From: a virus
Taxonomy: Duplodnaviria; Caudoviricetes
Strand: one strand, 5' to 3'
Virus record (IMG/VR): IMGVR_UViG_3300043959_000228
DNA: 64,000 nt
Under the pieces are notes generated by a model, which was given only the letters and a program-made list of their open reading frames with translations, made no database searches and was not told the DNA's origin. Shown here in pieces: positions 2,610-63,908 of the stretch. Every line of letters starts with the position of its first letter. The stretch's first letter is position 1. Both the position numbers and the translations under genes were made by a program.

Positions 2610-2770
2610 TAATAGAATCTATTGTTACTAAAAGTTGTAGTAAATTGTATCACGTTTTTTATGGCGGTACAAAAGTGAACTTTTAGCTGTACCTCCTGCG
2701 GAGGGCCGCAGTCCCGAGTAAGATTCGGGTGATTGCGGCGGGAGCTCGACAATTTGCGAGCTCCTCTTTA
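2610..2770 (-). ncRNA. Putative omega RNA (reRNA) scaffold overlapping the tnpB 3' end
   Basis: Three consecutive hairpins (2663-2696, 2705-2739, 2741-2764) at the position expected for TnpB omega RNA; limits approximate. Confidence 0.55.
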
Positions 2771-4136
2771 CTAGCTGCTTAAATTCTTGTCTGATATGAT
2801 TACGGTAAGATTTGGGTATCCTCACCTGACGCGGCGTCGGATGCCTCTTCTTAAGTTTCAGGATTTTATTCCTAGTCCTGCGTTTGTTCCGAACGGCGAG
2901 ATTCACCGCGGCCAGGGTGTCCCGGTCAATGGTTTTACCATCACTGAAAGTAACGGTTCTCCCTGATTTGACACCCTTATCCAGCGTGACCTGGTGCTGA
3001 GAAGAGGAATTCATCGCTGAGACCCGCTCCACGGTGATACCAGCCCGCTCCGCGGACGCAACGATCCGCTCATGAATCTCGGCGTGATTCCATTTACCGC
3101 CCTGGGATTTCAGCCACCGTAAGTCTTCAATATGGATCGTTGAGCAGTGTTGCTGCTTCGCAACGCAAACCACGGCTCGGCCGACCAAGTTGGCTAATTC
3201 TTGATGCTGATTCGTGATTTTCGATCTTACACGATTATATTCTGTCAAGAGCGTGGCTTCCCGGCCCGACAGTGCCGGGTTCTTTAAAGCTCGTATCCTG
3301 GAGATTTTTTCGTAGAGAGAATCCTTGTTCCTCTGAAGACGGCGAATCTTGTCGGCCAGTCGTTTCAGGTAACGATTCTGTATGTATTCATTACCATACC
3401 GGCCGGACGGGTATAAGGCCACCGCACTGAAAATCTTCACTCTACCAATATCTACGCCCAGAATACCGTTGCCTTCCGTCCGGCCCGGTGTGTATTCGAA
3501 GGCACATGTACCGATGAGTCTTCCGTCTCTTCTGCGACGGAAGAACCGTGGCTTTGCAATTTTGCCTGTCGGCTTCTCACTCAACGTATACGGGAACAAA
3601 ATGTCGTAGTCAAGCCACTTCCCGTCAAGAAGTTGGATTCGACAGGATGTACCCGTGAGCGTGAAATTCTGTGGAGCACTCACCGTGTAATCGAGTTGAA
3701 ATGTAGCCTCGCGAGCCATCTCGGGTTTAAGTTTACCTGAAAGAATATTCTCTACGCGACCCGAGGTCGCGTAGATTCTATGCTTCTTAGCTAAATTATT
3801 AAAAAGCTCAGGCGTAATTTTATCGTCATTATTCTTCAACTCATCAAAAATGATCTGGTTCTCAATCTTCGATTGCACCTCACGCCTGATGTTCTCGAAC
3901 AACATGATCCCGTACCAGGCGCGATTAGAAATAGGCCAGGTCTTCACACGCGCGCCTAGTTTCTTATTCATCTCGCGCCAAACATTACCCCTGTGTTGGG
4001 TGTAATCCACGGAAGCGATGAGCTTCCGTGATTCCTCATCCGAGAGGAAGAAGATGAGTTCCTTCTGGAGGAAATCGTATAGGGGTAGTAATTCGTCAGG
4101 GAATCTGATGTTGAAGGCTAGCCAGTGTTGCTTCAT
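2628..4136 (-). CDS. tnpB: RNA-guided endonuclease TnpB
   Basis: RuvC-I GVDIG, RuvC-II IHIEDL, RuvC-III DRDTLAAVNL; GGAGG RBS before ATG 4136; TGATATAAT upstream; Zn-finger cysteines absent. Confidence 0.9.
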   Translation of the reverse strand: MKQHWLAFNIRFPDELLPLYDFLQKELIFFLSDEESRKLIASVDYTQHRGNVWREMNKKLGARVKTWPISNRAWYGIMLFENIRREVQSKIENQIIFDELKNNDDKITPELFNNLAKKHRIYATSGRVENILSGKLKPEMAREATFQLDYTVSAPQNFTLTGTSCRIQLLDGKWLDYDILFPYTLSEKPTGKIAKPRFFRRRRDGRLIGTCAFEYTPGRTEGNGILGVDIGRVKIFSAVALYPSGRYGNEYIQNRYLKRLADKIRRLQRNKDSLYEKISRIRALKNPALSGREATLLTEYNRVRSKITNQHQELANLVGRAVVCVAKQQHCSTIHIEDLRWLKSQGGKWNHAEIHERIVASAERAGITVERVSAMNSSSQHQVTLDKGVKSGRTVTFSDGKTIDRDTLAAVNLAVRNKRRTRNKILKLKKRHPTPRQVRIPKSYRNHIRQEFKQLVKRSSQIVELPPQSPESYSGLRPSAGGTAKSSLLYRHKKRDTIYYNF

Positions 4137-4289
4137 TCTTCCTCCAAACCTGTATATATATATTATATCAAGAATCACGATGATTGACGAGATTCAATAA
4201 TTGTTAACGATGATATCATGTATGTTACCATAAATATCAATTATAAGAAATTATTGTTATTATACCATTCAATGGCTGTCTTGTAGGTG

Positions 4290-19040: not shown

Positions 19041-20618
19041 ATGTTCGTGGTTAGGAAGAGATTTGATGACTTCTCCTCATGGGATACGCCATCAACATCA
19101 ACAACCAGAAAAGCGTCAAAGTATAGTATTGACGCTTGGGATGATGATACTCCGAATCAACCGCCAGAACCAGTACAACGACATCGCGTTCTTCCTACGG
19201 CTACTCCTGCAACCAAGCAAGCCGCTAAGCCGAATCATATTACACCAGTAGATTCTCCATCATCGCAACAAGTTGCTCCTCATCATGAGAAGCCTAAGGA
19301 AGATCAAGAATCGTTTATTACGCCATTCGAGGATTTCCTGGGTACAGATGAGGACATCCAAGACGAGGAATTATTACAACCAAAATCTACAGACGATCAA
19401 CCATCTAATGATTTAGAAAACCGTCAGAAAGCAGCTAGTGAGAATCGTCATCATGGTCTTAGCGCCATGATGAGGAAACACGCCATAAGCCATCATACCG
19501 CTATACCCGCATCTAATCAGACGACTCCTGCTGAGGTGCCTGACACGGCCTATAATCAACAGTTAGACACAGACCATCCATCAAATCAAATAGACGATAT
19601 AGGTACTGATACCACCTCTGCGTCCTCATCTCCATACGATTTCAATGATTACGATATCGAGCCTGATTTCAAACAACCAATCGTTGAAGATCAACCCCAA
19701 TTGACATCTGAAAGCATAGAACCAGCTGATTATTTCACCTCTGATGAGGGCAAGCCTATCGATCCTGAATCTGATGAAAATCTCCCCTGGTCTATACCAG
19801 ATGGACACGTTCAGGATGATAACTTCGTTTTTGATGATTCCTCAACGCCAAGTGATGATCACGTAGACGGCAATGCAGACGAGTATGAGATGGCTACTGA
19901 TCCATCTAATGATAATGAACAGGATGACCCTACCGATGACGCAGATGAGGTCCCAATTCAGGAACCAGAGGATAGTGATCAATCATCAGACGATGAGCCT
20001 AATCAGGATGATATGAAACATCGGCTTGGATCATTATGGCATCAGATTAAATCTGATTTAACTGGTGGAGACGATCAGTCATCCCATCAGGGTGGAGAGA
20101 ATAATCAGAATGATCGTCATCCTAAACAAATCGGATCTGGTACAAGTCATCCTTCTATCCATCCTATCCATTGGCTGAGAAGCATTATTAATGCAGTATT
20201 CTCATTACTGCATATTACTGGTAGAATCGCTAAGATAGGCATATCATTAGGATTCATCCTTATACTAGCTTGGCTAGTGCTCAATATTATCACAGCATTT
20301 GATAAGGGATCCTCAATTCATGAGAGTCATGATGAGGGTGTGGTATCCGTCGTGTCAACGTCCTGGCATGATGCATCATTATCTACGAGGGTGACCAATC
20401 ACTCAGATCTTATCGCTCATATCACTGGTAAGGCTATAGTCAAAGCATGGTCACCGAATCTTAATCCTATATCACTCGTCAATCCTAGTGTGATAGCAAC
20501 ATGCTCGTTCACATCTCTTGACGTGAATCCTGGAGCTACGGTTGATTGGCCGTCAACGTGCTCTAAACAAGGATCTGGCTTATGGAATAGGATATCAGTC
20601 ACGATTGAATATCAGTGA
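19041..20618 (+). CDS. Acidic disordered protein with a C-terminal TM and small extracellular domain
   Basis: D/E/P-rich 525 aa, one TM near residue 400, AAGGAG RBS. Confidence 0.7.
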   Translation: MFVVRKRFDDFSSWDTPSTSTTRKASKYSIDAWDDDTPNQPPEPVQRHRVLPTATPATKQAAKPNHITPVDSPSSQQVAPHHEKPKEDQESFITPFEDFLGTDEDIQDEELLQPKSTDDQPSNDLENRQKAASENRHHGLSAMMRKHAISHHTAIPASNQTTPAEVPDTAYNQQLDTDHPSNQIDDIGTDTTSASSSPYDFNDYDIEPDFKQPIVEDQPQLTSESIEPADYFTSDEGKPIDPESDENLPWSIPDGHVQDDNFVFDDSSTPSDDHVDGNADEYEMATDPSNDNEQDDPTDDADEVPIQEPEDSDQSSDDEPNQDDMKHRLGSLWHQIKSDLTGGDDQSSHQGGENNQNDRHPKQIGSGTSHPSIHPIHWLRSIINAVFSLLHITGRIAKIGISLGFILILAWLVLNIITAFDKGSSIHESHDEGVVSVVSTSWHDASLSTRVTNHSDLIAHITGKAIVKAWSPNLNPISLVNPSVIATCSFTSLDVNPGATVDWPSTCSKQGSGLWNRISVTIEYQ

Positions 20619-21454
20619 CGGTCACGAAGTAGATTCCTACCGACTTTCTGAAGAGTTTGTTCCTTCAATGAACTCTTGGCTGTCTTACTGGCTTTCGTGT
20701 TATCAATGGTCTGTCCCCACCAGTTTGATCCAACAACCCTGGAGTGGACACCATGATTTGAACAGGACGCACCAGTCCCATCATGCTCTGCTTCACTGAT
20801 AATCCAGCACTCAGTCCTGCTTAGTATATCAGGTGTAAGATCATGCTGTCGAGGATCGTCACTCGGAATCATTTCTTTGATTTGTTGAAGGATGACCTCA
20901 ACCTGTCCATCTCGTTCTGCATTCAGAATAGCCTCCTGATACCGTAGAACCTGATAGACATCGTTCTTCTTTGCTCGCCTCTTGACTTCGACAATAATCA
21001 ATGATTGAGTTGACTGACGATATCCTATAAGATCAATACTGCCGTTCACGGTTTTCAGTTCTCGTCCAAGACAATATGAATCTTGACCAACGTATTCAGA
21101 CCAATGATCGTCGCGTGACAGCCATTCCTGTAATTGCCGTTCAGTCCCATTCACCATGCTCTTAGCCGTGTCAGTAGTCATTGGAATGGTCATATCAAGA
21201 AAGATCTCATAAATTGTGACATCAATGATCTCACCCTTCTTGCTTTCCACGCTAATAATCGATTGGCCGTCGGTAGACGCTGATTCTGTAACGTTAATCA
21301 CATCAGTCATGTAATTGACTGGCTTCACACCAGTAGATCGATGGATGAGGAACGATCCATCGTCCTTCAATATCAGCAGTCTGACACCACGACCTCTACG
21401 TGTTGATCCACGACCGTCATAATCAACTTCACAATCTACTTTCAGGAGCCTCAT
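20612..21454 (-). CDS. nucS: Mismatch endonuclease NucS/EndoMS
   Basis: CEVDYDGR, LLILKDDGSFLIH, KPVNYM, ERQLQ, GSIDL, VEVKR, QVLRY; TATAAT-N7-ATG gives start 21454. Confidence 0.9.
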   Translation of the reverse strand: MRLLKVDCEVDYDGRGSTRRGRGVRLLILKDDGSFLIHRSTGVKPVNYMTDVINVTESASTDGQSIISVESKKGEIIDVTIYEIFLDMTIPMTTDTAKSMVNGTERQLQEWLSRDDHWSEYVGQDSYCLGRELKTVNGSIDLIGYRQSTQSLIIVEVKRRAKKNDVYQVLRYQEAILNAERDGQVEVILQQIKEMIPSDDPRQHDLTPDILSRTECWIISEAEHDGTGASCSNHGVHSRVVGSNWWGQTIDNTKASKTAKSSLKEQTLQKVGRNLLRDRH

Positions 21455-21506
21455 ATGGCGCATTATACCTACGGTAGAGTGACCTGTAATGGCATATCTA
21501 TATCAT

Positions 21507-38408: not shown

Positions 38409-39596
38409 ATGGCTAGAATTAAGAAATCTGAAACACCTACTTCTACTAATGACGTCGACGCGCCAACTGTTGAAGCGTCAAGATTGAAAGCCATTGCTAA
38501 AGCAACGAACGGCATTAATGATAAGTATGGAGAGATGTCCGCGTTCTTCCTAGGAAGCAATCCTAGAGTTGAAGTCAAACGAGTCAGCACCGGATCCCTG
38601 GCGCTTGATTATGTCATTGGTGGCGGTGTGGCTAATGGTCGTATCCATGAGTTCTTCGGACCAGAAGGATCCGGTAAGACATCAGCGGCCCTACAGACTG
38701 TTGGCAATGTGCAGAAAGAAGGCGGTGTCGCCGTTTATGTTGATGTGGAGCACGCTATGGATCCTAAGCAAGCTCATCGTTTAGGTGTTGATATTAATAA
38801 GCTGATTTTCAGTCAGCCAAATAGTGCTGAACAGGCCTTGAATATCATGGCCACCTATATCAAGGCCGGTGTTGACATTATCGTGTTGGACTCGATTGCA
38901 TCCCTCGTTCCACAGGCTGTTATGGATGGAGAAGCCGAGGATCAAACCGTGGCGTTAGTGGCGAGGCTCATGAGTAAGAGCCTATCGAAGATTGCTACCC
39001 TAGCTGGAGAATCTGGCACTAAGGTCATCTTCATCAATCAGGTACGAGCGGCTATCGGTGGATATGGCAATCCAGAGACAACAACAGGTGGAAAAGCTCT
39101 CCCCTTCTATTCGTCTATCCGAGTACGAATCAGTAAGGGCCAGCAGATTAAGAAGAAGGTCCGTGGAGAGGAACGTCCTATTGGTCAGAAGGTTTTCTTC
39201 CGATGCAAGAAGAACAAGGTGTCCACGCCATTCCTCAATGCTGAATCAGAATTCTACTGGAAGGATGGCTATAACACACCATACGATATTGTCACGTTCG
39301 GTAAGAAGTACGGTGTCTTCAATTCTACCTGCTCAAAGGATCTTACCGAGAATCCTGAGGGTGAACAGATCATGTGGAATGGACAGAAGGTCACCAAGAC
39401 AGATATGCTCGCAGATGCTATTCGTGATAAGTCTTCAGGTCTCGAGGAAAAGTATTATCCCATCGTCTTGAAGCGTATGCTTGAGGATCAGAATTTCGAT
39501 GATGATGACGATGATGACGCCACGAAGGACGAGAACGAGGAAGCCTCACAGGACGTTGCGATATCTGAGGACGCTATTGAGGATGTAGTTGATTAA
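38409..39596 (+). CDS. recA: Recombinase RecA
   Basis: STGSLALD, GPEGSGKT, DVEHAMD, DSIASL, FINQVR, GNPETTTGGKALPFYSS, KNKV. Confidence 0.97.
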   Translation: MARIKKSETPTSTNDVDAPTVEASRLKAIAKATNGINDKYGEMSAFFLGSNPRVEVKRVSTGSLALDYVIGGGVANGRIHEFFGPEGSGKTSAALQTVGNVQKEGGVAVYVDVEHAMDPKQAHRLGVDINKLIFSQPNSAEQALNIMATYIKAGVDIIVLDSIASLVPQAVMDGEAEDQTVALVARLMSKSLSKIATLAGESGTKVIFINQVRAAIGGYGNPETTTGGKALPFYSSIRVRISKGQQIKKKVRGEERPIGQKVFFRCKKNKVSTPFLNAESEFYWKDGYNTPYDIVTFGKKYGVFNSTCSKDLTENPEGEQIMWNGQKVTKTDMLADAIRDKSSGLEEKYYPIVLKRMLEDQNFDDDDDDDATKDENEEASQDVAISEDAIEDVVD

Positions 39597-55700: not shown

Positions 55701-58454
55701 ATGAAAGGAAATATGATACGCAGGAATAAGAAACGCATCTTGTACTGCCTCCTAGCGGCGTTCTTCGTGCTAACGGGATCATTCATCTTCGTTTATCACG
55801 CTAACGCTGGACAAGGTGGTGGATCTGGTGATGGAAGCTGTGCTAACGGATGTCATTCGGGTGTACCAGTAGCCAAGATACAGGTAGGCAATTGGGGTTC
55901 ATGGCGTGAAGTCAACTTCGGCGGCGCTCGTGTGGCCTCATGGAGTGGTGACCGGCTAGACGCCTTGATGGATTCTACATTCAATAGAGCTGTCGCTGAT
56001 TGTAAGGCGAAGGCTCAGGCCAGGGGTAAGACGTGTAATAACCCGCGTCTTGTTACCATTGGATACATCGTCAATGGTGGGAACACTTGGGTCACTAGCC
56101 ACTCGACCGTCAAGTTGAATGGTACCGATCCAGGATGCCAGTCCATTAATGTGAACAACCATAACATTACCACCTGTACACCTGACCTCTCAGGTATCTC
56201 AGGAACGATTCGATCTGAGTATAACAACGTTAAGAACAATCAGGTCGTCGCTATGGTCGTCGTCGGAGAGTCTCAATTCCCACAGAAGGGATGGCGAGAG
56301 AATTGGACGAACATACCTGAATCAGATGTGAAATCTGTTAGCACGATTAATTCTGAGGATCTAACGGCCTGCCCAGTGTACTATAGCATACAAGCCAATG
56401 GTTACGATGGTTATGTCAGGAATATGTCCGCTCAGTCAAAGCTCGTCCTCACGCCGTATGGCCAGTTATGGAACGCTATCAATCAAGGTAAGAACACTTG
56501 GACTGACCCCGCCAACGGCAATGTGCTGTCCTGGTTCCAAGTTGAGAAACAACCACAGGGTGATTATAAGACGAATCCTACAGCTGCGGTCAATCGAGCT
56601 GTAGCCGACATAAAACTTGCTCATGACGTTGCTTGCGCTGAGACCTATAAGATGAAGATCGATTATAATCTTGACACTGACGGAGGTATACCAGGTCAGC
56701 AACTTAATAAGCAGTTTGCCCGTGGTGGACAGTATAAGCTTGTGAAGCAGACCAAGAACGCGGTCATTACCGTGAAGAACTTGAATCTTGACTATTATCG
56801 TCGTGATGTCAACTGGGGACAGTGGAACGGTTGGAGCGAGTGCTACCAGGGCGAATCAGGATGTGGCCATATTGGTGAGTCTCGACCAGCTGATCCTTCA
56901 GGTCTAGTCACTGATCTCTATGGAACTGGTCAACGTGGCCGATACTCAGTCGGTGATTGGGTGAAGGGTGACTCGAATGAGATTCAGAATGCTGTCAACA
57001 AGGGTGGTAATGTCAATGTTGCCGGCCGTCGACTCAGCGCAATCTTCGCATCTGATAATTCCATGATTGGTCATAATACTAATAATGGTGTATCTTGGAA
57101 TACTGGTGGAAAAGACAAGTGGATCTTCGGATCAAGTACTGGTATTATTGATGGTACAAAGTTCCATGGTGTAGCTAATGAGTTGCAATCATATGTGGCT
57201 GTTGCTATGCAGGACTTCATTAACATTAATTGTAATCAGGACGACTTCGATACCATCGTCAATTATGTCCGTGGCAGGAAAGACGCTAACGGTAAATCTA
57301 TACTTGATGAATCGTCTGTGAAGAGCACCAAGTATAATGGTTCACTATCCACAGTCGTCATGACCGGATTCCCAGCAGTGCAGAAGATTAATCAACGAGC
57401 ATTAGACATTGTTGCTTCCGCTAATGATGGATCCTATCCAGGTTGGAGTGGAAATAAGGGTGATACCAATGGATGGTCAAGTTCTGACTCTGAAAAGGCC
57501 GGTGACGCCGATCCTATCTATACAAAGGAATGCCCATTTGATTGCTCTGATTCAACATCAGCTAGTACATCAACGTCAACTAACGTCGGTGACAAGTCAA
57601 CGTCAAGCGGATCTGTAAGCTCTGCTGACAAGGCTACCGGTTCATTCGGTATCCTATCATCAAAGCTCAATGCGTCAACGTCAACATTGCTCAGTGGTCT
57701 ACAGGGCAATGATAAGATCAACCAGCCAGTAGCAAACACCGCTGACCCAGTGTTCTTCCGTGATAATGAGTGGAATTACATGAATCTCGATCAGTGGGCA
57801 CCAGTCTCAGCTGCATCAGTGAATTATAATAAGTCCACTACGCCAGTAACGACAACATTCGTTGTTAATACCGATGGATCTCCTTGGTATATTGGAGACA
57901 ATAAGACTCCAGTAACGAAGGTTCAGGCTCTTGATCCTAAGACGAACACTTGGGTTGATATTCTCAATGGTACGCAAGAAGGATCGAGCTCTCAATGGTC
58001 ATCAAGTGAGAACTCAAAGTCTCAGACTGTTACACAGAATTTCGTAAATTCTGATATGAGAACAGCAACCACTCAGCTGGCCACGAATGTCACTAAGATC
58101 AGAATCAAGTCTCCATGGGCATCTGAAAAGAACAGTCCGTTAAAGTTTAACGTCAAGTGGGAGTACACTGCACAGAACTCTGCTCCAGTAGTGTCTACTT
58201 GGTCAACGCAGGGCGACGGATCTGTCAGTGGTAATAGCACAACGAAGGACATGGGAACGTCAACATCAAAGGTTGATGGTAAATGCGACAGTCAATACCA
58301 TCTTCCAGGAGTGTCTTATAACGATCACTCTTCATTCATTCAGCCAGAAACTGGACAAAGTGTGAAGAACAATCTTGATAAGAGTTACCAGGGTGAGGGT
58401 CAGACAATGTCCGGTTGGTTCACTGTGACATTCGTCAGGGCGACTAGTGAGTAA
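55701..58454 (+). CDS. Large secreted Cys/Gly/Ser/Thr-rich protein (putative adhesin)
   Basis: Signal peptide ending HANA; multiple Cys pairs; no sortase motif; AAGGAG RBS. Confidence 0.75.
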   Translation: MKGNMIRRNKKRILYCLLAAFFVLTGSFIFVYHANAGQGGGSGDGSCANGCHSGVPVAKIQVGNWGSWREVNFGGARVASWSGDRLDALMDSTFNRAVADCKAKAQARGKTCNNPRLVTIGYIVNGGNTWVTSHSTVKLNGTDPGCQSINVNNHNITTCTPDLSGISGTIRSEYNNVKNNQVVAMVVVGESQFPQKGWRENWTNIPESDVKSVSTINSEDLTACPVYYSIQANGYDGYVRNMSAQSKLVLTPYGQLWNAINQGKNTWTDPANGNVLSWFQVEKQPQGDYKTNPTAAVNRAVADIKLAHDVACAETYKMKIDYNLDTDGGIPGQQLNKQFARGGQYKLVKQTKNAVITVKNLNLDYYRRDVNWGQWNGWSECYQGESGCGHIGESRPADPSGLVTDLYGTGQRGRYSVGDWVKGDSNEIQNAVNKGGNVNVAGRRLSAIFASDNSMIGHNTNNGVSWNTGGKDKWIFGSSTGIIDGTKFHGVANELQSYVAVAMQDFININCNQDDFDTIVNYVRGRKDANGKSILDESSVKSTKYNGSLSTVVMTGFPAVQKINQRALDIVASANDGSYPGWSGNKGDTNGWSSSDSEKAGDADPIYTKECPFDCSDSTSASTSTSTNVGDKSTSSGSVSSADKATGSFGILSSKLNASTSTLLSGLQGNDKINQPVANTADPVFFRDNEWNYMNLDQWAPVSAASVNYNKSTTPVTTTFVVNTDGSPWYIGDNKTPVTKVQALDPKTNTWVDILNGTQEGSSSQWSSSENSKSQTVTQNFVNSDMRTATTQLATNVTKIRIKSPWASEKNSPLKFNVKWEYTAQNSAPVVSTWSTQGDGSVSGNSTTKDMGTSTSKVDGKCDSQYHLPGVSYNDHSSFIQPETGQSVKNNLDKSYQGEGQTMSGWFTVTFVRATSE

Positions 58455-58485: not shown

Positions 58486-58526
58486 CTTGCGGGGTAACAG
58501 ATCGTATAGATCTGTTACCCCGCAAG
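58486..58526. terminator. Terminator hairpin
   Basis: CTTGCGGGGTAACAGATC/GATCTGTTACCCCGCAAG. Confidence 0.8.
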
Positions 58527-58589
58527 TGATTATATACCGTATTCAATAATAAGACAATATTCTCGTTATGACGTGGTATTATATATTGT

Positions 58590-59093
58590 ATGAATGAACA
58601 TAAACAACGTCAAGGAAGATCGGTATCTTCACGTGGCCAGTTTGCTGGGCAACACGATGAGCGGTTAGCTATGATTGCCAAGGAGACTGATCGTAAGCTG
58701 AATCAGGAAGGGCATGATGATATATCTGAACGGTCACACCTATCAGATGCCTCAAACAATATGAGTTTTACCTTGACTAAATTCGGTCTTAAGAGCGCTA
58801 CCTTGCTATCATTGTTCCTAGGTCTTGTCTATGGGCTAGCTGTTATGGGAGCTGGATCTGTTATTACATTTATGATTTCTAGAACATCTATTCTTGATAT
58901 TATCAATCGAATCATGGGTAACGCCATGACATTGACACCGGGAACCTTATATCTTCTTTCAGCGTTGCTGGCTATCGTCGTATCAGTGTTCGCAGCATTG
59001 ATTATCTGGTTTAAGGCGTTATTGTATAATGCTGGTTCGATGGCTTTCGGAGGATTACGTATCACATTAGCGAAGACGGAGGATAAGAATTGA
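58590..59093 (+). CDS. DUF3566-like membrane protein
   Basis: 2 TMs and C-terminal LYN...GGLRITL; TATTAT-N7-ATG. Confidence 0.7.
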   Translation: MNEHKQRQGRSVSSRGQFAGQHDERLAMIAKETDRKLNQEGHDDISERSHLSDASNNMSFTLTKFGLKSATLLSLFLGLVYGLAVMGAGSVITFMISRTSILDIINRIMGNAMTLTPGTLYLLSALLAIVVSVFAALIIWFKALLYNAGSMAFGGLRITLAKTEDKN

Positions 59094-59437: not shown

Positions 59438-59535
59438 GAAGAAGGATGATGAGGATCATGTATATGATATTTGAACATCATAAGTAAGACGACCGGCACA
59501 TAGGATCATACACGGAAATATGGAGGTTTTGACAA

Positions 59536-60936
59536 TTGGGTACGGTCTATAGAAAGCAGAAAGCATTATATACCAATGAGGAGTTCAAGCAACTTGATTT
59601 AAGATTCAGAGTAGGAGCTATTCTCAGTGATGGTCAATGGTATACATCAGATAAGATTCGTCAATGGTCTAAGGAACGTAATCTTGATGAGATTAATCCT
59701 ATTCTCAATGAGATGATGCATCAGCATCAGATTATCAAGAGTAATAATGGCGCGTCATATCGAATGTCTCTACGTCAAATGCAGCAATGGCGGCATGATC
59801 AACATATGAGCATGGACGCTCAGCCAATACCAAAACTCCTTTATCCGAGAGTATTTGGACAAGGTGATCACGCTATGAGTGAAGTAGAGCTCTTCGAATC
59901 AGCTCCATTACACCAAGTAGCTATCTTAACATTCATGCTTAAGAATCCTGATGACATTGACAAGCTGAAAAAGGATTTAGGATATCTCGGAAGATTTAGG
60001 AAATCCCCTACATCTGGTAAATATCAATTATACGCCTTATCAAATAAGGTCACGAAGGATGCCCTCCTCAAATGGGAGGACTCTCATGGCGGGGATATCT
60101 TCGTTCCTGGAAAATTCAATTCTAATAACTCAAGTAGACGAAGAGAACTCATTGAACTCGATAGGCATGTCGTCAATGAGCTCATTACCTTTTATATTCA
60201 ATTCTCTAAATATCTCGTACCATCGATTAAAAAGACTTTTAACGTATACTTAAATGGTAGTATTGGTGCATCAGCATCACAACGAGAAACCACCGACTCA
60301 ATATCCGAGGGTGATAGCATCATCATGCAATGGTTACTCAGTCTTATCAAGACATACGATGAAGGCAGATGCGTACCATTCAGTTACTCTATTGTCATGT
60401 TATTCCCACGTAAGGCCTACGATTACTCCTCTAAGATCATCGGTGATGACTTGAATAGGTTTCAATTAGAGAAGAACAGAGCTATCAAACGTCTTAATGA
60501 ACAGAGTAAAGCGCAGGGTTCGTTGAACTCTATGAAGCACATCGAGAATAGCGTTATCTGTAATGAAATCAATAAGAATGGTAGTATTGATCTTTCTATC
60601 CATGAATATGAGGATCTTGATATGTCCTTGAAGTCATGGCAAAAGTCATATTCACAGGAATCATTAGATTGGACGGAGACAGGAGAGGAACGTGGGTTTG
60701 TCAGTAAGAATGATGAATCCTTCCTCGAAGGTATCGCCAGTAGATCTGATATTCATCATGCTATCATATTAGCTGCTGAGGACACACACGATTGGTCATC
60801 AGAAGTCATCATGTTCAATGCTCTGACCGATTCGAGTATCGCGTCAGCTATGATGAAAGGGAAGATGGATCTCATATCTGACTCATTCAGAGATGCATTA
60901 GCCACATCATTAGCCGAGGTTCGCAGGCTTGGCTGA
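59536..60936 (+). CDS. Divergent sigma70-like factor with N-terminal extension, region 4 not recognisable
   Basis: NELITFY (region 2.1-like), WLLSLIKTYDEGRCVPFSY (cf. GL..AV.KFD..RG.PFSTY, 2.2-2.3), region-3-like helix, SLD; GGAGG RBS with TTG start. Confidence 0.55.
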   Translation: MGTVYRKQKALYTNEEFKQLDLRFRVGAILSDGQWYTSDKIRQWSKERNLDEINPILNEMMHQHQIIKSNNGASYRMSLRQMQQWRHDQHMSMDAQPIPKLLYPRVFGQGDHAMSEVELFESAPLHQVAILTFMLKNPDDIDKLKKDLGYLGRFRKSPTSGKYQLYALSNKVTKDALLKWEDSHGGDIFVPGKFNSNNSSRRRELIELDRHVVNELITFYIQFSKYLVPSIKKTFNVYLNGSIGASASQRETTDSISEGDSIIMQWLLSLIKTYDEGRCVPFSYSIVMLFPRKAYDYSSKIIGDDLNRFQLEKNRAIKRLNEQSKAQGSLNSMKHIENSVICNEINKNGSIDLSIHEYEDLDMSLKSWQKSYSQESLDWTETGEERGFVSKNDESFLEGIASRSDIHHAIILAAEDTHDWSSEVIMFNALTDSSIASAMMKGKMDLISDSFRDALATSLAEVRRLG

Positions 60937-60953
60937 GATGATATCTCAGTATT

Positions 60954-62198
60954 ATGCCATCATTATCAGGAGGACTATCTATGCCAGCTATTCGTCAAGC
61001 GCGATATGAGCTGGTGTCAGATCTGAATTCTGTCAGCAGATTACTGCCATTGAAGAAATTGATATGGGCGTATGGACGATATCACGCTAAGCCAACTGAG
61101 GTTCCAACGGCCGACGGTCTGGCTCAGAGTGGATATAGAGCACTCGTATACGAGGAGCTTACAGAGCGCGATGAATCATGGCGCATTGCCTTGCTCTTTA
61201 GAATCGGACGAGAGAAGAAGAGCGTATGGCATACTGTCGTCAGCATCGATTACGTTCTTATTGATCCTTCTGCCAGAATCACATTTACAAAACTCAGTTC
61301 CTGCGTCAGACTCTTATCGCAATTCTCGTTAAAGCATCTTAAGGCATCGTGCATTGACATTCTTATCAATTTAGAGAATCAGTCTAATCCAGCATTGAAG
61401 AAATACCTGCAACGAGCCTTCATCAATGAGGGTATGACCGTGTCTAATGATGGTTCATCATGTGCTAAGAGATTACGAGACGTCGATGACGATGGTAAGA
61501 ACACAGTCAATCTACCATTACCGAATGTTGTCAAATCTGAGGTAAAGGGTCTACGACCAGCCGTTCAATCAACCATTAAGAGTCAGAATACCAAGGATGG
61601 TGAGCGTGTCATCTTCGTCGGACGTATTCCTAAGGGCAGTAAGAATCATAAGCTCATTCTCTCATTCTGCAAGAAACATGATGGGTGGATGAATCCTAAG
61701 TTAAGTGATCGTACTAGCTATATGCAAACGACATTCACCGGAGAAGGCAATGTGAACGCCTATGTGGAGTCGTTAGTCCAGGATGCACATTTTATCATCG
61801 TACTAGACGCTGACAAGCGTATGACCGGATTTATGGCTTTTATCGCTGGATACTCAATGTCATCGATATCGAATATGCAGAAAGGTGGATTCTCTAATCC
61901 ATCAAAGTACGTATCACCAGAACGAGTGATTTACGTTCCGGCAATTGTCTGTGATTCGAGATTCGGTGGATTATGGACGAAGAAAGGATTGCAACAGGCC
62001 GTTAGCCTATGGAAGATGTTATTCACCATCGTGTCTGATAAGAAGAATCGTAATGAGTACGAGTTAATAGGATCAATCGTCGGTAAGGATAGTGTTCATG
62101 CTCATTTGCTGGAGGCTCTTGGATTCACTTGCAAATCAACGATGAGCAATCTTCCATGGCATGCACGAGCCTCATCAATATACGCTCGACATACATGA
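60954..62198 (+). CDS. Hypothetical protein (possible degenerate tandem GNAT folds)
   Basis: MTGFMAF, YVPAIVCDSRF, LLEALGF resemble GNAT elements; ATATCT-N7-ATG. Confidence 0.6.
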   Translation: MPSLSGGLSMPAIRQARYELVSDLNSVSRLLPLKKLIWAYGRYHAKPTEVPTADGLAQSGYRALVYEELTERDESWRIALLFRIGREKKSVWHTVVSIDYVLIDPSARITFTKLSSCVRLLSQFSLKHLKASCIDILINLENQSNPALKKYLQRAFINEGMTVSNDGSSCAKRLRDVDDDGKNTVNLPLPNVVKSEVKGLRPAVQSTIKSQNTKDGERVIFVGRIPKGSKNHKLILSFCKKHDGWMNPKLSDRTSYMQTTFTGEGNVNAYVESLVQDAHFIIVLDADKRMTGFMAFIAGYSMSSISNMQKGGFSNPSKYVSPERVIYVPAIVCDSRFGGLWTKKGLQQAVSLWKMLFTIVSDKKNRNEYELIGSIVGKDSVHAHLLEALGFTCKSTMSNLPWHARASSIYARHT

Positions 62199-62230
62199 TC
62201 TTCTAATCGTCACCCTGATATCTTCATTGT

Positions 62231-62851
62231 ATGTCAGATGAAAAAGTATCCAGATTAGCTTCCTCTAATGTCCAGGTAAAGACCGGATATGTAATAGGCT
62301 CGTTAATCAAACGTATTATCAAGGCCGTACTGATTATTATGGCTTGTTTGTTTATCGTGTATTCAGTCGTGCTTGTACCAACGGCTGTTCGAGTATTATA
62401 CACGGATAATTTCGGATTAGTCCTGACAAAAGACCCGACCATCAAAATGGGTAAGATACCATCTGGTAAGACAGAATTAGTCATTATTGGATCTGGAATA
62501 AATGCGACTGAAACTGCCAAATCTAAAATCACCGCCGCCTTTACGCCACATCAGTCTACATCTATTGTGAAAATAGCCGGTGGCCCTACTGGTCATCTAA
62601 AGATTGACGACGCGACAGGGCTCGCCAGTATCGATGGTAAGACCATCAATAATTCTAGAAAACCGCTTAATTACGCATCAGTCGTGAAGAATAAGTACCT
62701 TCTTGATAATCAGTATTACGTGCAGTGTCTGAAAGGATCATGTCAACAAGGACAATTCTATGTTATGGATCAAACGGATATTCTTGGTGAAGTAAAGACC
62801 AATGATACTGATCAACCATTGATCGATGTCTTAAAGGAGCAACGCTCATGA
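62231..62851 (+). CDS. Single-TM protein, possibly a degenerate S26-like fold
   Basis: N-terminal TM, IVKIAGGP, NQYYV, DILGEV resemble the S26 layout without a clear catalytic Ser; ATATCT-N7-ATG. Confidence 0.55.
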   Translation: MSDEKVSRLASSNVQVKTGYVIGSLIKRIIKAVLIIMACLFIVYSVVLVPTAVRVLYTDNFGLVLTKDPTIKMGKIPSGKTELVIIGSGINATETAKSKITAAFTPHQSTSIVKIAGGPTGHLKIDDATGLASIDGKTINNSRKPLNYASVVKNKYLLDNQYYVQCLKGSCQQGQFYVMDQTDILGEVKTNDTDQPLIDVLKEQRS

Positions 62852-63093: not shown

Positions 63094-63182
63094 ATGGTCT
63101 TCAGATTTTATCGGTGATATCTTCATCTTGTTATATATGTATATGGTATTAAACAGCTTCGCGGCTAAGGGGTAAACAAAAT

Positions 63183-63908
63183 ATGATACAGAGTTTGAGG
63201 TCATTCCTCCATAAGCGACTACGATCTGAGAAAGCTGAGAACACCATTACTTTTCTGATCGCCTTTCCTTTCCTATGGTGTATTATTATGACCATTATCG
63301 ATTTTGGCGTTTATGTCAATAACACGACGACACTTCGATCAGATCTTCGTGATGGCGCTCGAACAGTAGCTATCTTCGGTGGAACAAATACTGTTGTTAG
63401 TGACGCCTATCTGAAGGAATGTACATCAACATCATCTCAAGGTGGATCGTCCAGGGGATATACAACTTCTGATAACGGCATAGCTTGTCTTGTGTCAAAT
63501 AAAATTAATGCTAATACATCGTATGTCAATAATATGGTTATTAGCAATATTCAATGTGGCCCTGTAAGCGGCGTTTCCGTAGGACAATCCACATGGTGTT
63601 CTGCACACTATCTGTACACTGGCATGCCGGGTTCTGCTCTAAGTCTCTTTGGCGGTGGCGTATCTAGTTTCAATACTGGTGGTGGAACGGTTGCCACGAA
63701 GAGCGGTGATGAAGGATGGAATGCAGGTACCATCAAGGCCTCGGCACAATCAGAGGTTAGTACGAATTATGATCAAGAGGATAATTCTAATGACTCTATG
63801 CTCGATTATAACTCGACGCCAACGTCTACGGCAACGCCGACACCAACGACAACATCCGGTCACTTTGGCGGTGGCGGAAACATGTCGACACAACCAAATC
63901 TTAATTAA
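63183..63908 (+). CDS. TadE-like minor pilin
   Basis: Basic leader, FLIAFPFL...IIDFG, RDGARTVAIFGG. Confidence 0.7.
   Translation: MIQSLRSFLHKRLRSEKAENTITFLIAFPFLWCIIMTIIDFGVYVNNTTTLRSDLRDGARTVAIFGGTNTVVSDAYLKECTSTSSQGGSSRGYTTSDNGIACLVSNKINANTSYVNNMVISNIQCGPVSGVSVGQSTWCSAHYLYTGMPGSALSLFGGGVSSFNTGGGTVATKSGDEGWNAGTIKASAQSEVSTNYDQEDNSNDSMLDYNSTPTSTATPTPTTTSGHFGGGGNMSTQPNLN

Follow-up and report, generated by a model that had tools for sequence, protein, structure and literature searches.

We analyzed a stretch of 64,000 nucleotides (nt) from the IMG/VR record IMGVR_UViG_3300043959_000228 (hereafter, the window), which belongs to a giant plasmid-like element and includes a gene for a protein of 466 amino acids (aa), denoted P0001. 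A preliminary description of this DNA, made from the letters alone, had proposed that P0001 is a sigma factor without region 4 that reads ATATCT promoters. Comparisons of sequence profiles and structure models support the identification of P0001 as a strongly diverged protein of the sigma-70 family in which the sigma-2 and sigma-3 domains are kept, and its descent from this family appears highly likely. We further propose, with a probability of about 0.45, that P0001 is the reader of a distinct class of promoters of the element (class II) with the -10-type motif ATATCT, a role in which it would presumably bind RNA polymerase.

The P0001 gene starts with a TTG codon that is preceded, at about 9 nt, by GGAGG and agrees with the N-termini of the homologs. 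The family includes at least 79 cluster representatives (clusters at 50% identity), retrieved in an exhaustive phmmer search of 1.84 billion representatives; a word search gave 14 clusters, and a metagenome scan with an alignment of 12 close relatives (A1) added two loci. No relative was detected in the GTDB species genomes, tblastn with P0001 gave no match among the PLSDB plasmids and INPHARED phages, and a phmmer search of the PDB with P0001 returned nothing; within the window, neither paralogs of P0001 nor other sigma factors were found.

The relationship to sigma factors is apparent from an alignment of 67 diverse relatives (A2), which was searched as a profile against all PDB sequences and compared, profile to profile, with an alignment of 20 canonical sigma factors (A3). 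The PDB search yielded 11 matches at E ≤ 10, all 11 of which are sigma factors, the best one being Escherichia coli sigma-28 (FliA, 6pmi_F; E = 0.0046; FliA residues 53-204). In the hhalign comparison of A2 with A3, P0001 residues 264-363 were placed on regions 2.2-3.1 (Prob 82.7, E = 9.6e-6). The A2 alignments to FliA and SigA extend through region 3, and both the FSxY core of region 2.3 and the helices of regions 3.0-3.1 align with group 3 sigma factors. When the relatives were scanned singly, 10 of the 67 matched Sigma70_r3 (PF04539) and 5 of the 67 matched Sigma70_r2 (PF04542), and three relatives matched PHROG families annotated as RNA polymerase sigma factor.

The structural evidence points in the same direction. 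An AlphaFold2 (AF2) model of P0001, with a predicted local distance difference test score (pLDDT) of 77, was compared with 48,161 chains in an exhaustive VIA-align search, in which the first and second ranks were taken by SigB (8x6g_H; Z 7.5, root-mean-square deviation (rmsd) 3.3 Å over 145 residues, with model residues 105-370 on SigB residues 13-162) and sigma-28 (1rp3_A; Z 7.5 over 134 residues, with model residues 206-373 on chain residues 4-144), so that similarity to sigma domain 2 is seen also at the level of structure. These top Z values are middling. The look-alikes in the ESM Atlas include Sigma70_r2 clusters named SigF and an Actinomycetota cluster automatically named FliA. Comparison with sigma regions 2 and 3, suggested in the preliminary description, gave a signal with hhalign but nothing with Foldseek, where the full model had no match at E ≤ 0.001 in the PDB or BFVD. 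The description had aligned segments of the C-terminal half to sigma-70 by eye, and both hhalign and VIA-align place the sigma regions there; the segment NELITFYIQF (residues 213-222) falls in the region 2.1 helix in the VIA-align superposition, and the region-3-like helix is borne out by the PF04539 matches and the extent of the alignments. A prediction of the complex of P0001 residues 200-466 with residues 1-420 of the Bacillus subtilis beta-prime subunit scored 0.16, below the mark, and counts as evidence neither way.

Upstream of the sigma-like core, P0001 contains about 200 additional residues, and the winged helix tentatively noticed there is readily recognizable (Table 1): residues 20-95 match winged helix-turn-helix (HTH) domains of the MarR/ArsR type with Z of about 7 and rmsd of 2.2-2.8 Å over 66-73 residues. 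The most conserved motifs of the entire family, LSDGQWY and SYRM, are located in this domain, which carries no net positive charge. It is followed by a small alpha/beta domain that matches GvpF, the ACT region of aspartokinase and other proteins at Z 6.6-6.9; the resemblance of the whole N-terminal module to Lrp/AsnC-type proteins is weak (ST1022, probabilities 0.33-0.54). Region 2.4 is indeed altered, as originally described: it is about 10 residues shorter, with a 10-column gap at its position in the hhalign comparison and no tryptophan pair aligned, whereas F282 and a nearby tyrosine are conserved in the P0001 family. Past the sigma-3-like domain lies a conserved acidic linker, with pLDDT below 50 for residues 373-400 and with W379, T382 and E384 invariant in A1; judged by its position alone, it could occupy the place of the sigma finger (region 3.2).

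The five-helix C-terminal domain stands at the sigma-4 position, and the conclusion that it contains no recognizable sigma-4 HTH, already drawn for region 4.2 from the sequence, stands. The profile comparison of A2 with A3 found no region 4, and a model of residues 388-466 folded separately (pLDDT 77.5) matched the sigma-4 domains of sigma-28 (Z 4.8) and HrdB (Z 4.6) at the noise level; Foldseek with this model returned nothing. The best match of the domain, RbcX (Z 7.3), was dismissed as a generic helical arrangement. The net charge of the C-terminal domain is -6 (family median -2), compared with +3 for the last 70 residues of canonical sigma factors.

The ATATCT promoters of the preliminary description are equally well founded. 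No hexamer is more enriched than ATATCT in the 70 nt that precede 49 open reading frames (ORFs): 17 of its 51 copies in the window fall there (13.4-fold, p = 4.7e-14), an enrichment above that of GGAGG or TATAAT; in the window overall, the hexamer is under-represented, with 51 copies against 84 expected. Each of the 14 intergenic copies is oriented toward the gene that follows, and for 7 copies the distance to an ATG, which has no Shine-Dalgarno sequence, is exactly 7 nt. In the aligned sites, the hexamer is preceded by a base other than A, followed by T in 12 of the 17 and by A at 7 nt downstream in 13 of the 17, with no conservation found at -35. We read the motif as a -10 element, T-15 G-14 A-13 T-12 A-11 T-10 C-9 T-8 T-7, and the predicted transcription start would often coincide with the A of a leaderless ATG. 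The P0001 gene itself is preceded by TGATATTT, which differs from the class II motif by one base and includes, at 59466-59472, the GATATTT noticed earlier.

The motif is also enriched upstream of genes in related elements. In the two closest ones, 5 of 11 ATATCT copies (L011) and 7 of 13 (L001) are located upstream of genes. In the complete sequence of G001, an IMG/VR record of 419,707 bp with terminal repeats whose sigma-like protein is 62% identical to P0001, 74 of the 219 copies are upstream, preceding 74 of the 398 ORFs (p = 1e-45), with 16 at exactly the N7 spacing; an exact ATATCT also lies upstream of the start of the P0001 ortholog in G001. Elements with sigma-like proteins 31-51% identical to P0001 contain no upstream ATATCT and use GATATT instead, with a purine at the same downstream spacing in 20 of the 22 sites, no conservation at -8 and a weak -7 (T in 10 of the 22). 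In the distant element L014 (37% GC), TGATATT precedes 4 of the 14 genes. The motif variant follows the element lineage across a GC range of 37-53% and, judging from these sequences, the P0001 gene family and the GATAT[C/T] -10-type motif appear to travel together. Downstream of class II promoters, the 5' leaders of G001, L001 and L003 show an enrichment of AGATTG, GATTGA and TAGATT, as exemplified by TTAGATTGAGATTGA before G001 gene 194281-195546; these hexamers may represent a shared leader element.

A second promoter class (class I), with a (T/C)GGTATAAT-like motif, that is, (T/C)GGTA(T/C)(A/T)AT, precedes replication and repair genes. In the window, class I sites are located, for example, upstream of 14877, 35508, 38409 and 50552, and the genes preceded by this class include those for the DNA polymerase III alpha subunit, an exonuclease, RecA and RecG. 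A class I -10 element also heads the probable operon that consists of the genes for a DUF3566-type membrane protein, a small protein of about 100 aa and P0001; this placement is found in three divergent elements, with the same arrangement as in the window seen in L002 and L004. The small protein gene adjoins the sigma-like gene on the upstream side in 14 of 15 loci, including those of distant elements; its product has a conserved C-terminal motif, Y-x-P-Q-I-E-L, belongs to no known family and may be a co-factor or an anti-sigma factor. Between the gene at 55701-58454 and the class I promoter of the operon, there is a perfect GC-rich hairpin, CGGGGTAACAGATC...GATCTGTTACCCCG (58490-58522), which probably acts as a terminator and delimits the operon. 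The wider gene order is conserved as well, and comprises the Replicase, Rce1-like, RecG, NlpC/P60, DUF3566, small protein and sigma-like genes followed by genes for proteins of about 410, 200 and 81 aa.

We favor P0001 as the reader of class II promoters because its gene keeps a fixed position within the transfer module and is followed immediately by motif-driven genes in all elements; because its operon starts with a leaderless class I -10 in three divergent elements; and because the lack of a recognizable sigma-4 HTH together with a remodeled -10-reading helix fits a motif with a loosely conserved 3' half. Under this scenario, P0001 would be expressed from the leaderless promoter, of the host or TATAAT type, that heads the operon, would bind core RNA polymerase via the sigma-2 domain and would direct initiation at -10-only class II promoters, with the start about 7 nt downstream, often at the A of a leaderless ATG. 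These promoters would drive genes for the Tad pilus, Tcp/VirB4-type transfer, a cell-wall hydrolase and envelope proteins of unknown function. The motif variant before the P0001 gene would provide positive feedback, which accords with the autoregulation envisaged earlier, and the protein of about 100 aa would be the likely partner, whether as a co-factor or as an anti-sigma factor.

Several observations weigh against this proposal. P0001 by itself has no Pfam or NCBIfam match above threshold. In E. coli sigma-70, promoter melting and recognition of position -12 depend on Y430, W433, W434, Q437 and T440, and no counterparts of W433/W434 and Q437/T440 align in P0001. The covariation of motif and protein is based on two clades only, so that the co-occurrence of gene and motif anticipated in the preliminary description is indeed seen across relatives but with this narrow phylogenetic basis; residues specific to one clade, Y284 in region 2.3 of the ATATCT clade among them, are likewise confounded by phylogeny. 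The class I (TATAAT-type) promoters, too, have no clear -35 element; hence the argument that the lack of region 4 explains the lack of a -35 element does not discriminate between readers, even though the lack of a recognizable region 4 and the altered region 2.4 of P0001, and a motif without a -35, were correctly noted at the outset. Furthermore, the class II motif fits a TANNNT or extended -10 element that the primary sigma factors of some hosts could possibly read. Finally, P0001 is not the only sigma-type protein of these elements. A 491 kb contig that shares the RecA of the window encodes a canonical sigma factor of 324 aa (P0093), and G001 also encodes a canonical sigma factor of 276 aa and a third, sigma-like protein of 361 aa. 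In G001, ATATCT precedes all three sigma-type genes, with the N7 spacing before the 361-aa gene and, for the canonical sigma factor, at a distance of about 285 nt from the annotated ATG. In distant relatives, the order is canonical sigma factor, small protein and sigma-like gene, and the two families co-occur. With several sigma-type genes sharing the elements and the motif, co-occurrence and promoter placement cannot single out the reader.

The main rival, accordingly, is the canonical sigma factor of the elements (P0093/P0091 type), with an altered region 2.4, as the reader of class II promoters; P0001 would then read another promoter class, compete for core RNA polymerase or act as an accessory regulator of the transfer module. 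We regard this possibility as rather unlikely, albeit the least so among the alternatives. Region 2.4 of P0093 reads WWIRHYIQR, and the protein has a clear sigma-4 HTH. At the positions of Q437 and T440, which set the -12 specificity in E. coli sigma-70, the canonical sigma factors of both the 491 kb contig and G001 have H and Q; however, the T at -12 is common to both promoter classes, so these changes do not predict class II. The ATATCT upstream of the canonical sigma gene in G001 is what would be expected of an autoregulated alternative sigma factor, but on L008 the 270 nt that precede the identical canonical sigma gene contain no ATATCT, and this gene is located among replication genes (gyrase, ligase), outside the transfer module. 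In L014-L016, the canonical and sigma-like genes are adjacent, and TGATATT is present in L014 as well. The canonical sigma factor of the P0093 type has a sigma-4 HTH, whereas the class II motif has no -35 partner. For the canonical sigma factor of G001, a conserved N-terminal segment, FFDLDEELFLGK, is encoded in frame upstream of the ATG, and the annotated start is either mis-set or non-canonical.

A more radical version of the proposal would assign P0001 a new sigma architecture, with a sigma-2/3 core devoid of region 2.4 and of the sigma-4 HTH, with the winged helix reading the duplex TGATAT and with the protein of about 100 aa as an obligatory, gp33-like or anti-sigma-like, polymerase partner. 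We consider such a design improbable.

Also improbable is the possibility that class II sites are extended -10 (TGn-TAnnnT) promoters of the host primary sigma factor, with P0001 acting as a repressor or activator via the winged helix and with the uniformity of the sites resulting from recent common descent or from binding of this regulator. The motif indeed fits T-15 G-14 n T-12 A-11 n n n T-7, conservation within the P0001 family is highest in the winged helix, and the lack of a -35 element in both promoter classes suggests a host that tolerates -10-only promoters. The degenerate -8 and -7 positions of the GATATT-type sites, however, would be unusual for a primary sigma factor; two sharply distinct -10 classes coexist and are partitioned by function; and the motif variant tracks the element lineage across the GC range given above. 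The lack of net positive charge in the winged helix and the conservation of the sigma-2/3 core across the family also argue against a regulator of this kind. That P0001 is a relic with a sigma fold that no longer binds RNA polymerase, for example, an accessory factor of the relaxosome or of DNA processing in the conjugation module, is highly improbable: its gene is embedded among transfer genes (NlpC/P60, TrbL-like and VirB4-like nearby), and both the canonical melting and -12 residues and a recognizable sigma-4 are absent, but a family of at least 79 cluster representatives retains the collinear sigma-2, sigma-3 and acidic linker, and the family searches gave no pointer to relaxase or oriT-binding families.

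The element itself, originally described as a plasmid, is better characterized as giant and plasmid-like, of about 0.4-0.5 Mb, given the RecA shared with the 491 kb contig and the size of G001 (419.7 kb). The RecA encoded in the window (38409-39596, + strand) is identical to that of the 491,046 bp contig and 71% identical to that of a 349.7 kb contig and, among the matches listed, at most about 45% identical to named cellular RecA proteins, which suggests a family of sludge elements of 0.35-0.5 Mb; a search for the host by means of RecA gave no match. The element DNA comes from bioreactor sludge metagenomes (four DNA runs), and the GC content of the window is 44%. The replication and repair genes in the window encode the DNA polymerase III alpha subunit, RecA, DnaG, a 5'-3' exonuclease, NucS, RecG, a PIF1 helicase and a Replicase-family protein, and the transfer and envelope genes encode TcpE, a VirB4-like ATPase, TadC, a prepilin peptidase, TadE and NlpC/P60. 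The NucS endonuclease gene is located at 20612-21463 (- strand), and a TnpB/Cas12f-like gene with a TNB domain lies at 2628-4178 (- strand).

Table 1. Features of the P0001 locus (positions in the window unless a contig is named; residues are those of P0001)
Feature	Position	Strand	Remark
Class I -10 element GGTATTAT	58575..58582	+	7 nt before the leaderless ATG of 58590
DUF3566-type membrane protein gene	58590..59093	+	probable operon head
Conserved gene for the candidate partner of about 100 aa	59090..59437	+	directly 5' of the P0001 gene
TGATATTT	59465..59472	+	one-base variant of class II motif, 63 nt before the P0001 start
Sigma-like ORF P0001, 466 aa	59536..60936	+	TTG start to stop
Winged helix-turn-helix, residues 20-95	59593..59820	+	MarR/ArsR-type structural matches, invariant columns
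Small alpha/beta, ferredoxin/ACT-like domain, residues 127-201	59914..60138	+	structural matches
Sigma-2-like domain (regions 2.1-2.3), residues 206-300	60151..60435	+	
Sigma-3-like domain (regions 3.0-3.1), residues 301-372	60436..60651	+	
Conserved acidic linker L-x-W-x-E-T-G-E-E, residues 373-393	60652..60714	+	predicted disordered
Acidic five-helix C-terminal domain, residues 394-466	60715..60933	+	sigma-4 position, no recognizable HTH
ATATCT	60941..60946	+	7 nt before the ATG of the next gene, 60954-62198
ATATCT	62218..62223	+	7 nt before the ATG of 62231-62851
ATATCT	63117..63122	+	60 nt before the TadE-like gene 63183-63908
G001 canonical sigma factor, annotated 276 aa	L006 934-1764	-	
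G001 third sigma-like gene, 361 aa	L007 817-1902	-	weak Sigma70_r2 match, E 0.025; protein without Pfam match

If P0001 is the reader of class II promoters, giant plasmid-like elements would carry phage-style expression programs, with their own set of sigma factors and a -10 code for conjugation and pilus genes. Such a program would explain how these elements hold costly transfer genes in check and then switch on, all together, dozens of dispersed units that each have a promoter of their own. If true, a sigma factor with a winged helix in the place of regions 1 and 2.4 and without a sigma-4 HTH would bear on the recognition of -10-only promoters; it would amount to a private promoter code for elements of 0.35-0.5 Mb, comprising about 74 promoters in one complete element, that would shield the genes for transfer and pilus from regulation by the host and form one tier of a multi-sigma cascade. 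The promoter motif and the gene pair together are a simple metagenome marker for this uncultured element family. Even with another reader, a family of at least 79 clusters (50% identity) that is unannotated in Pfam can be labeled sigma-derived.

Among the known sigma factors, the best profile and structural matches of P0001 are to group 3 (sigma-28/FliA, SigB, SigF), with which it shares collinear sigma-2 and sigma-3 domains. Unlike these, P0001 starts with about 200 additional residues (the winged HTH and alpha/beta domains) instead of region 1, and it has a region 2.4 shortened by about 10 residues and an acidic (-6 versus +3) C-terminal domain without a recognizable HTH. A sigma-4-less, -10-only system is known from the late transcription of phage T4, which employs gp55 with the co-activator gp33 (PMC2988020, PMC7892883). 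The P0001 system may resemble it in combining a diverged sigma factor that does not read DNA via sigma-4 with a -10-only promoter and a small, separately encoded candidate partner, although neither gp55 nor gp33 was matched, by sequence or by fold, in searches of the PDB and BFVD. P0001 is 2.5 times larger than gp55 and keeps sigma-3, has no known link to a sliding clamp such as gp45 and is encoded by a plasmid-like element rather than a lytic phage.

The preliminary description considered a plasmid sigma factor with a dedicated regulon unusual; there is, however, a precedent in SigN (ZpdN) of the Bacillus subtilis plasmid pBS32 (PMC6751061), which controls a plasmid-borne regulon and is itself expressed from host-sigma promoters and an autoactivated one (PMC6751061, PMC10601692). 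The P0001 locus is similar in that its operon is headed by a class I -10, with a class II-like motif directly before the gene. SigN is weakly similar to sigma factors of the extracytoplasmic function (ECF) type, and its promoters have both -35 and -10 boxes (PMC6751061, PMC10601692); in contrast, the putative regulon here consists of genes for transfer and pilus, and the element, of 0.4-0.5 Mb, encodes two more sigma-type proteins.

As a giant plasmid-like element with its own DNA polymerase III, repair genes and sigma factor, the element is similar to the Inocles, circular extrachromosomal elements of oral Streptococcus, 395 kb in size, with 24-32% GC, recovered from saliva, in which the sigma factor is annotated as RpoS (PMC12340149). 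GC content (44% versus 24-32%) and habitat (bioreactor sludge versus saliva) speak against an identification with the Inocles, for which that paper describes no private promoter code (PMC12340149). Plasmid sigma factors with plasmid regulons and sigma-4-less, -10-only systems are already known; the family of giant elements in which P0001 is encoded is unusual.

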